Part shown: in pieces, positions 29,259-50,375 of the stretch
Layout of the letters: each line of letters starts with the position of its first letter
How positions within the stretch are numbered: the stretch's first letter is position 1
Translations under genes and position numbers: made by a program
DNA from: Proteromonas lacertae
Taxonomy: Eukaryota
NCBI GenBank assembly: GCA_002245135.1
Contig: NGBS01000584.1
Location: 186,001 to 250,000, forward strand
Reading direction: 5' to 3'
Length of the DNA: 64,000 nt
Notes under the pieces: generated by a model
Told to the model about the DNA's origin: nothing
Seen by the model: only the letters and a program-made list of their open reading frames with translations
Database searches by the model: none

Positions 29259-29710
29259 ATGGTATATATCTCTTCACTGACTTAATTATACTTATAAATA
29301 TGTTAATATTCAATCTCTCATGTCTTTTACTAACTCATTTATCATGAATTTTGTTTATTATTATTCAATAGGGACAAGCTGGACCAGCAAGAAAGAAGGT
29401 ATTGTAAGAATTATATTATTCATTAGTGGACAAAAGGTAAGGCAAGAGAAAAGACTAACAACGCTGTAATTTACGATCAAGAAACTTATGATCGTTTATT
29501 AAAGGAAGTACCAAAAGTATAGATAGTGTATATAATTTTTGAAAATAGCTTAAGTTGATCACCGCCTCAGTACTTGTAGATCGTTTAAAGATCAACGTAT
29601 CATTAGCTAAACGTTCACTCAAGGATTTATGTCAAAAAGGTTTAATCCGTGAAGTATCATCACACCCATCACAAGTTATTTACACCCGTGCTACAGCCGG
29701 ATCTGAATAG
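29259..29710 (+). CDS. RPS25: 40S ribosomal protein eS25 (missed by ORF track)
   Basis: ATG, intron 29262-29371, GQAGPARKK, intron 29399-29426, [30 protein letters not shown], intron 29517-29548, [24 protein letters not shown]...[12 protein letters not shown]. Confidence 0.95.
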
Positions 29711-36011: not shown

Positions 36012-36375
36012 CTATGTATTGTATTAATCGAATTTCATGGAGTAATGTATAGATATATGTGTGAATAACAATTATATAATACTTTTATATATAAATAGAA
36101 AGTGAATGAGAAAAAAGTAAAGGAAATGCAAAATATGAACCAAAACGACTAATTTTTTAGTAAATTAAAACACAAATAATAAAGCAATTATTATCAATAT
36201 ATTAGTTATAAGTGTATTTATTACATTAAAATCGATGTATATGGAGTATCAACAATCAATAAGACTAATATTTCTTTAAAATTATGATTCTTTTATTTGG
36301 TTCTTCAAGCTTATAGAATAATTAAATATATTAGCAAAAAAACAATTAAAAATATAATAATATTAAATAATATAA

Positions 36376-48215: not shown

Positions 48216-48633
48216 GATTGAGTAGTTTAAAGTCTTTTAAATTGGCGAAGAAAGTGATTATTTTGGCGCGCAATGACGAGTTGATAACGAAATCTGCAGA
48301 AATGCTACATTTCACTTCAAGACATTATAGACATGCAATTATTTTGCTGAAAGATTGTGGATTTAACCATTTTTTGGTGATTTTTGAATTTTCTGGACAA
48401 AATTCTCACACAATAATGCTGACATTTTATAAACACATCTGTCAATATTTATATCTCCTGAAACTACTAAACAATAAAATCATTCCATTTTCTTAATGTA
48501 ATCGTCAGAATCTCACTATATATCATTGTTTATCACATTTCTATACTTTCATAGGTATTATTTAGCTTATTATAATCAAACATCAAAATTGAAACGAATA
48601 GTTTTCAGTTACAATCTATTTTGCAACTCGCAT

Positions 48634-49015
48634 CACTGAAATGGGATGATACAAATCTTGTCTGATATGATAGTTTTGGCTAAAATATTGGTATATTTAT
48701 ATTCTACTATATATTCTCTGCTGGCTGAAGCTCTTTCAGCTTTCAACTGAACTAATCAATTAATTCTATTGTTAATATTCACTTATTTATCTCCATAGAG
48801 GCAAAATAAAGATTTGGGGAAAGTCTCCGAGTAATTAGTAGAGAGTACAACCTTAGTTGGCAATCACCCTTTTATGAGAAGTTAACGAAGAAGATAGTTC
48901 AAGCTATCCGAGTTTTCTCTAGCAAAGGCGTTTTTACTATATCACAGTTATTCATCCATTGTAGGAATCCTGGTAAGATTCTTGCAATAACCCAACGGAG
49001 CTTACATTTCACGTG
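48634..49015 (+). ncRNA. RMRP: RNase MRP RNA
   Basis: P1 CACTGAAATG/CATTTCACGTG; P2 GGATGA/TCATCC; P3 CAAATCTT/AAGATTTG; CR-I GGAAAGTCTCCG pairs with CR-V CGGAGCTT (P4); P8 GTA-GAGAG-TAC (GARAR loop); CR-IV ACAGTTA (ANAGNNA); 12-bp P19 at 48958-48988. Confidence 0.92.
48691..48798 (+). other. Putative 108-nt spliceosomal intron inside RNase MRP P3
   Basis: TG|GTATAT...CTAAT...CATAG|; AT-rich; removal restores a compact ~60-nt P3. Confidence 0.6.
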
Positions 49016-49150
49016 GTTGTTACCACGACAGAATATGTTAAGAAATTCATTCATATTATTATATATATTTATCTATAGGAACTAGTAAAGACACAGAAAT
49101 TGAAAAATCGAAGTAATTATGATATATACATAAGTAAATTAACTATTTCT

Positions 49151-50375
49151 CTAATTTTTAATAACACTATTTCTAGGGGTTGGGATAAATGTCCAAGGTA
49201 TATAACTAGAAGAATCAAAATCTTCTTCAACTGGATCCATCTTACTCTCAGTCCTTTGATTTCGTGTATTTTCCAACTATATTAAAAGATATAATATAAT
49301 AATATATATACATCTTGTAGTGTCATATTAATTTCTACTTTACTAACACCAATTTTCTGTACAATCCATTGTCTTTCAATTGCAGACAAACTTCCTTCTT
49401 TCTCATATCTTTTGTTATCCAAATGTTCTGGGTTATTCTGTTTAGATTCTTCATATTCTTCAATTTCAAAACTTTCCTCTTTATTTATATCCCATCCTAA
49501 TCCAACAGGAACACCTCCTCGTAACGGTACACTTGTTGGCGCAATATTACTCTTATATTCTCTTATATTTATCTTATTCCATTTAATATGAGGTTTTTGT
49601 TTATTTTCTGACTTTTTCACTGTTATTTCCTCAACTATTTCAACATTATCATTGTCTATCTCATTTTTAAATGTGAAATTTTCATCTACTGAATTATCAC
49701 TGTTCTTAGTTGATAATAAATCATTAATTTTCACATGATTTCTAGGGGTTGGAATAGTGGTAGTAACATGACATGAATTGGGTCTATATCTATCAATACT
49801 CTGCATAGAAGCAGAATTTGACTTAGGAGAGTCTATTGGAGATGGAATATCTAAAACTGATTCTGAATGACACATTTTCAGTGTTTTCGAATTATTTATA
49901 GGAAGTAAAAGACGAGGAGGAGCTATATAAATGAATTTATGTAAATAATACTCACTAATTTCTTTTTTAATGCTGAAATGTGTAATTGTTTATCATCTAT
50001 TGGATCTTCAACATGCTTTCGCATTGTTCTGGATACTATACCTGGACTCATAGAATATGACCTATTCACAAGCTTTCTTTGTTCTGACAGAGGTGAAGGC
50101 ATATATGAAGATGATTGAGTTGTTGGAATAATTACACTACTTTTCATATCACCAGCTCCAATTGAATCTATATCGTCATTATCTGAAAAATCTAAATATT
50201 CTGTTTTTCTGTTTGACATTTTCGGTATATTTGGAGCTGATACAGTGTTCTGATTTTTAATTAAGGAAAAAGATATATCTAACAGATTAGAATAGAATTC
50301 GATACTACAAACACCCACTTTGGGATTTGTATTGAAATTTTGACGTTTTGAACTTTTTGTTTGGGAGTTTTTCAT
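49151..50375 (-). CDS. Ser-rich protein with CSRNP_N-like block (paralog 1)
   Basis: IKWNKINIREY...SVPLRGGVPVGLGW...FEIEEYE; ATG at 50373-50375, stop at 49151-49153. Confidence 0.65.

Follow-up and report, generated by a model that had tools for sequence, protein, structure and literature searches.

A likely spliceosomal intron in the P3 domain of an RNase MRP RNA gene of Proteromonas lacertae

Is the oversized P3 domain of this RNase MRP RNA gene a retained expansion, or is it split by an intron? The gene is found at 48634-49017 (+) in the window, which is the whole 64,000-nt stretch of Proteromonas lacertae DNA that was analysed. Its P3 is interrupted by a 108-nt segment (48691..48798, +), which a preliminary description had proposed to be spliced out. 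We regard this segment as a likely U2-type spliceosomal intron; the predicted RNA would then be about 275 nt long. The intron reading is preferred because the insert has splice signals of the type used in this genome, because P3 is restored by its removal, because the RPS25 gene of the window provides a control for a long intron, and because a second MRP gene (locus L010, from a metagenome) has an insert of its own. Shuffles of the boundary region point the same way. The proposal stands as probable, with support from sequence and predicted folding.

The MRP RNA gene and its P3 domain

The gene is identified by a match to Rfam family RF00030 together with a reading of sequence complementarity. 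The match spans 48791-49017 (E 9.9e-12, 47.5 bits); the gathering score is 50, and there is no match at gathering. The score is low because the alignment omits P3, which is skipped via a local end, and places a false 5' end within the insert. The 5' part of the gene (P1, P2 and the closing helix of P3) was assigned by complementarity in the sequence and then folded. P1 (48634-48643/49005-49015, +) has a pair probability of 1.0 and P2 (48644-48649/48952-48957, +) of 0.85-0.98 in all three forms of the RNA that were folded. The P3 closing helix is formed by 48652-48659/48809-48816 (+), again by sequence and fold. The two strands of P4, in CR-I (48819-48828) and CR-V (48997-49003, both +), are complementary and both align to the Rfam consensus; CR-I, which is of the GAAAGUCUCC type, pairs with CR-V in the P4 pseudoknot that marks members of RF00030. 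The Rfam alignment also places a GAGAG loop in P8 (48841-48845, +) and an ACAGTTA element (48944-48950, +). We take these to be the GARAR pentaloop and the ANAGNNA element, both specific to MRP. All of these hallmarks had been claimed from inspection of the sequence, and each is present where it had been placed.

Predicted exon 1 (48634..48690, +) holds the 5' strands of P1, P2 and the P3 closing helix as well as the distal P3 hairpin. Predicted exon 2 (48799..49017, +) is delimited by the RF00030 alignment and the fold; it runs from the 3' loop strand of P3 through the closing helix, CR-I with the 5' strand of P4, the P8 GAGAG loop and ACAGTTA to the 3' strand of P2, a P19-type hairpin, and the 3' strands of P4 and P1. 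The gene shares P1, P2, the P4 pseudoknot, the P8 GAGAG loop, ACAGTTA and CR-V with RNase MRP RNA as described by RF00030, and its length of about 275 nt without the insert is comparable to that of other MRP matches (199-310 nt). It differs from members of the family in that its P3 is broken by the 108-nt intron-like segment and in that there is no T-run at the 3' end. By analogy, the predicted role of the RNA is to assemble with Pop1/Pop6/Pop7-type proteins and to cleave pre-rRNA in ITS1.

P3 measures 165 nt unspliced and 57 nt without 48691-48798, and the RNA 382 and 274 nt, in agreement with the lengths of about 165 and about 274 nt given initially. It had also been claimed that the segment is exactly the excess; this holds in so far as P3 shrinks to 57 nt, but the remaining domain is still about 10 nt over the Rfam consensus P3. 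CR-I lies 185 nt from the 5' end in the unspliced and 77 nt in the spliced form, compared to 56-101 nt in 45 distinct MRP sequences, which are rich in close kin and do not represent 45 independent cases. The distance was measured from the Rfam start to CR-I; in L010, L033 and L051 that start lies inside P1. The comparison set comes from a pattern scan of metagenome contigs, which returned 64 loci. Rfam was run on 55 of these; the nine left out are largely duplicates, and two loci (L006 and L050) are chance matches. Fifty full-length MRP matches, exclusive of truncated matches and obvious duplicates, were entered by hand and reduced to the 45 distinct sequences, none of which has a P3 of 165 nt. 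The same pattern finds no relatives of the gene in viral contigs (0 loci) or in genome contigs (0 loci). None of the 64 metagenome loci resembles it beyond the core motifs, and there is no orthologue among them that lacks the insert.

Folding is consistent with removal of the segment, within limits. With pairing of the P4 strands disallowed, the P3 closing helix forms with a probability of 0.88 in the spliced RNA, 0.74 after a 28-nt deletion (48771-48798) and 0.00 in the unspliced RNA; without this constraint the value is 0.08 even for the spliced RNA, and P3 is not formed in any form. It should be noted that P3 also stays below 0.2 with 29 of 40 shuffled inserts, so the loss of P3 is non-specific. 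The insert interrupts the internal loop of P3 on its 3' strand. For spliced P3, a structure with loop strands of 8 nt (5') and 10 nt (3') is possible, compared to 8 and 9 in the Rfam consensus. The minimum-energy fold of spliced P3 pairs part of these strands, and the 5' loop strand does not have the ACA/UAC-like letters of the consensus. Spliced and unspliced forms are not told apart by a profile built from the 45 MRP sequences (31.6 versus 31.8 bits); this profile aligns only from CR-I on, and a test with it over 297 deletion variants is uninformative for that reason.

Splice signals and the introns of the window

The window is eukaryotic, uses the standard code and has a GC content of about 27%; a value of 27.0% is reported for Proteromonas (PMC12129017). 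Its DNA polymerase delta has stramenopiles as best named relatives (57-63%), and the best named match of its oxysterol-binding protein is tortoise-type Blastocystis (46%). By these matches the source reads as a divergent stramenopile, probably close to Blastocystis/Proteromonas. Close relatives are present in Logan assemblies, with protein identities of 94-98% and, for one group, 75%. Introns were predicted ab initio. A first-pass model which allowed any GT..AG yielded 99 introns, 57 of them no longer than 50 nt; of these short introns, 54 start with GTAT and 56 end with TAG. A second pass, trained on the first-pass introns and circular for the donor, yielded 169 introns with a median length of 32 nt, of which 152 are 48 nt or shorter; the bulk falls between 23 and 48 nt. 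Where second-pass introns are of the GTAT..TAG type, almost all (145/151) stop at the first TAG found 22 nt or more past the donor. No branch motif is enriched in the short predicted introns of the second pass, and CTAAY is found in 3 of 146 compared to 6.4 in shuffles. For comparison, introns are 30 nt long in human Blastocystis, and longer and more variable in tortoise isolates (PMC12129017).

The ends of the insert conform to this pattern. Its predicted 5' splice site, GTATAT (48691..48696, +), has a donor score of 9.6 (median of the training donors 9.1), and this is the commonest donor hexamer of the short predicted introns (17/57). The predicted 3' splice site is TAG (48796..48798, +), the first such triplet after the donor; applied to donor 48691, the first-TAG rule gives an end at 48798. 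The acceptor is weak, with a score of 4.6 which is just below the 5th percentile (4.8). ACTAAT (48751..48756, +), 43 nt ahead of the insert's 3' end, is a candidate branch point. GTATAT, CTAAT and TAG, all listed in the preliminary description, are present (at 48691, 48752 and 48796). Both ends of the insert are intron-like in composition (+0.12 and -0.02 bits/nt, versus -0.41 and -0.46 for the exons), and the insert is purine-poor (0.37 versus 0.53-0.54). Its GC content is 0.28, compared to 0.14 for short introns.

Among the predicted introns of the window, the first intron of RPS25 is the only well-supported long one. RPS25 (29259-29710, +; Pfam PF03297) has a 110-nt intron (29262-29371) directly 3' of the ATG, with a GTATAT donor, TACTAAC, and an end at ATAG which is the first TAG. 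This segment must be spliced, since it has an in-frame stop at its end. Its ACTAAC is 38 nt before the end; the corresponding distance for ACTAAT in the MRP insert is 43 nt. A 12-nt word also recurs in both segments (25/2,000 shuffles), located on a different side of the branch motif in each; it may be a chance match. A third segment of this kind, GTATTT..ACTAAT..TAG (36214-36316, +; 103 nt), lies outside the predicted exons; it is possibly an untranslated-region intron, or a chance occurrence.

Retained segment, shorter introns and guide RNA

The main alternative is that the insert is an expansion segment of P3 which is kept in a mature RNA of about 382 nt, its splice-like ends being produced by chance in AT-rich DNA. 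We consider this unlikely. The length of the insert is in its favour, being unusual for an intron of this genome: it is three times the median and outside the 23-48-nt bulk. The middle third (48716-48750) is also exon-like in composition (-0.42 bits/nt), is GC-richer (52% GC around it) and contains a 7-bp hairpin (48723..48741, +), and the isolated P3 fold can close over the whole insert. However, the hairpin is not significant (z -0.76), and the insert as a whole, unlike a helical expansion, folds no more stably than its shuffles (z -0.87). In the full RNA the insert abolishes the predicted P3 and pairs with P8, and a P3 of equal size is absent from the 45 MRP matches. In yeast, P3 is described as a binding hub for Pop6/Pop7 and Pop1 (PMC4536320); since it has this role, an unstructured 108-nt insert kept in its loop would presumably be costly. 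A transposon-like origin of the insert was rejected, as its hairpin has no second real copy within the window.

The chance origin of the ends can be estimated. GTAT is frequent in intergenic DNA (6 times per kb), which fits the retained reading. Nevertheless, a GTAT..TAG deletion leaving a 3' loop strand of 6-13 nt is found in fewer than 1% of dinucleotide shuffles of 48691-48808 (126/20,000), or in 35/20,000 if CTAAY is also demanded, and in 90 of 10,581 overlapping intergenic windows; the 6-13-nt range was chosen after inspection of the data, and the chance level is best taken as about 1%. Insertions that are kept have been described in domain 2 of Candida MRP RNA (PMC5033589) and in basidiomycete SRP RNA (PMC4605306), and both lend the retained reading some plausibility. 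The SRP RNA case had been considered as a precedent for spliceosomal introns; it was dropped, because PMC4605306 says the opposite. The expanded MRP RNAs of Candida albicans and the C. parapsilosis group (PMC5033589) resemble the present gene in being lengthened by insertion. They differ in that the Candida insertions are in domain 2 and are treated as retained, while the present one interrupts P3 and carries splice signals. Large retained MRP insertions are reported for Candida and for Kuraishia (PMC5033589, PMC3879985).

The preliminary description offered a 28-nt intron (48771-48798) as an alternative; in this case, or if several small pieces were spliced, P3 would stay at about 137 nt. This is very unlikely. 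A length of 28 nt fits the intron mode of the genome, and the product folds P3 well (0.74; -26.9 kcal/mol), but the donor it would need, GTTAAT, has a score of -1.9, compared to a 5th percentile of 3.7, and a GTTA start is seen in just one of the 57 short introns. For splicing in smaller pieces, the AGs available at 48730 (GAAG) and 48739 (TCAG) both score below zero. The 137-nt P3 that would remain is outside the range of other MRP RNAs.

Long introns in genomes with short introns often host snoRNAs. The idea that the insert is an intron kept long as the host of a small nucleolar RNA is extremely unlikely here: it has two CTGA motifs, but no C box and no Rfam snoRNA match up to E 1, and its guide-position sequences pair with rRNA (eight eukaryotic rRNA loci of other organisms) over 8-10 bp, compared to 6-11 bp for shuffles. 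A C/D-like pair upstream of the gene (48273-48350) was likewise rejected as a snoRNA, as it has no rRNA guide match.

Under the preferred reading, that of a 108-nt spliceosomal intron, the insert may also affect the folding of the precursor. A 13-nt stretch of the insert (48712..48724, +) is complementary to the P8 GAGAG hairpin (48835-48847), with four G-U pairs and an energy of -14.8 kcal/mol. A pairing of this length is reached by 17 of 400 shuffles and the energy of the best 14-nt duplex by 1 of 150; the complementarity was found post hoc. In the model the unspliced precursor misfolds, and it is the pairing with P8 that drives the misfolding. The preliminary description had inferred a coupling of splicing to rRNA processing, which is hypothetical as a form of regulation. 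A more elaborate scenario, which we regard as doubtful, treats the insert as a safety catch and a point of control over ribosome production: by pairing over 13 bp with the P8 GARAR hairpin and blocking P3, it would allow MRP assembly only after splicing. Together with the first intron of RPS25 it would then form a small class of long introns with branch points, linked by the 12-nt word, which co-regulate an rRNA-processing ribozyme and a ribosomal protein; introns would have entered MRP genes independently several times (in P3 here and in P1 in L010).

Transcription, precedents and other MRP loci

Runs of four T are found inside the gene at 48674, 48870 and 48913 and a run of five at 48931; the first T-run 3' of the gene is a T5 at 49155. 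The presence of internal runs and the absence of one after P1 had been noted, correctly, as an argument for Pol II. The Pol III pattern, a terminal T-run and none inside the gene, is not seen, but the terminator length of this host may differ. Lists of Pol III transcripts usually include MRP RNA (PMC6619189). The T-runs fit Pol II better, and we think it reasonably probable from the sequence that the gene is transcribed by Pol II. The intron does not add to this argument, because U6 of S. pombe is spliced (PMC5855946) and U6 is a Pol III transcript (PMC6619189).

The flanks of the gene contain several further features. A 6-bp hairpin overlaps the 3' strand of P1 and the 3' flank (49012..49027, +; z -2.80, 3/200 shuffles) and is a possible 3'-end processing element. 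In yeast, Rex3 trims the 3' end of MRP RNA (PMC12129344), and by analogy similar trimming may take place here. Upstream, a 47-nt GTAT..TAG segment (48555-48601, +) ends 33 nt before the MRP 5' end and has an acceptor-like TAG directly before it; one possibility is an intron in the leader of a Pol II precursor. Segments of this kind (22-50 nt) are common, at 1.75 per kb of intergenic DNA. A host intron around the MRP gene, from donor 48555 to acceptor 49078, was also considered; it found no support, as under the first-TAG rule this donor would end its intron at 48601, and short GTAT..TAG segments are common. Further upstream, in the 840-nt gap between a zinc-finger gene and the MRP gene, 48244-48280 (+) contains GC-rich TTGGCG / TTTGGCGCGC and ATGACG words. 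These resemble E2F- and CRE-type promoter elements.

If the 108-nt segment is an intron, the precursor would be transcribed, more likely by Pol II than by Pol III, and the major spliceosome would recognise GTATAT (48691) as donor, cut at the first TAG, which ends at 48798, and probably branch at the ACTAAT motif. Ligation would generate a helix-loop-helix P3 of 57 nt; the ends would be trimmed to P1, and the RNP would then cut pre-rRNA. By analogy with the route proposed for snRNA introns, the intron was most likely gained in the present lineage via reverse splicing and retro-recombination.

No description of an intron inside MRP RNA was found in the literature searched, although the text and supplements of related papers may bear on novelty. 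For fungi, spliceosomal introns have been reported in U6, U1, U2 and U5 snRNA genes and in rRNA genes (PMC5855946). Like the present insert, these are of the mRNA type, with a donor, a branch motif and an acceptor, and lie within a structured ncRNA; they are lineage-specific gains. The present case differs in its host RNA, which is MRP RNA and does not lie close to the spliceosome's active site, in its organism, a stramenopile-like protist, and in that splicing is predicted from sequence. In insects, crustaceans and nematodes RNase P or MRP RNA can be intron-encoded (PMC9849065; PMC6797745). There, too, P/MRP biogenesis is linked to Pol II and an intron-containing context; however, the RNA is within a host intron, whereas here the intron is within the RNA.

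If the prediction is true, RNase MRP RNA would be added, outside fungi, to the few RNAs with a catalytic or structural role that need splicing, and an early rRNA-processing step would be tied to the spliceosome. It would also be a case of intron gain in a nucleolar RNA outside the spliceosome, and would bear on what decides intron insertion in ncRNAs, a question posed in PMC5855946. Such introns would drop MRP genes under the Rfam threshold, as here (47.5 versus 50 bits). Some 'missing' protist MRP RNAs may therefore be hidden.

The MRP gene at L010 is a likely second intron-containing case, unrelated to the present one, as judged from sequence. It has a 96-nt GTAAGT..CTAAC..TAG insert (501-596, +) where the 5' strand of P1 ends; its relatives L033 and L055 do not have this insert. 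Without the insert its 5' segment is 21 nt long, compared to 22 nt in L033 and 21 nt in L055, and the P1 duplex reaches -24.6 kcal/mol versus -7.2 kcal/mol. In L051, which belongs to the same group, about 130 additional nt, in which GT and AG motifs occur, apparently lie between the 5' strand of P1 and P2 (approximately 520-650, +; boundaries are approximate).

Other observations concern the remaining loci. AG|GT is present at both RNA ends in 16 of the 40 MRP matches examined, as if the RNA filled a whole intron; loci flanked in this way include L003, L005, L007, L012, L015, L024, L029, L031, L036, L041, L042, L047 and L057. Eukaryotic 18S rDNA contigs are contained in at least 46 prokaryotic genome assemblies (L065-L110), which is contamination. 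Two weak SNORD33-like matches are located upstream of MRP in L061 (969-1151, -), and a tRNA-Sec gene adjoins the MRP gene in L017 (415-500, -). Three tandem MRP copies, spaced about 460-470 nt apart, are found in each of L036, L042 and L062.
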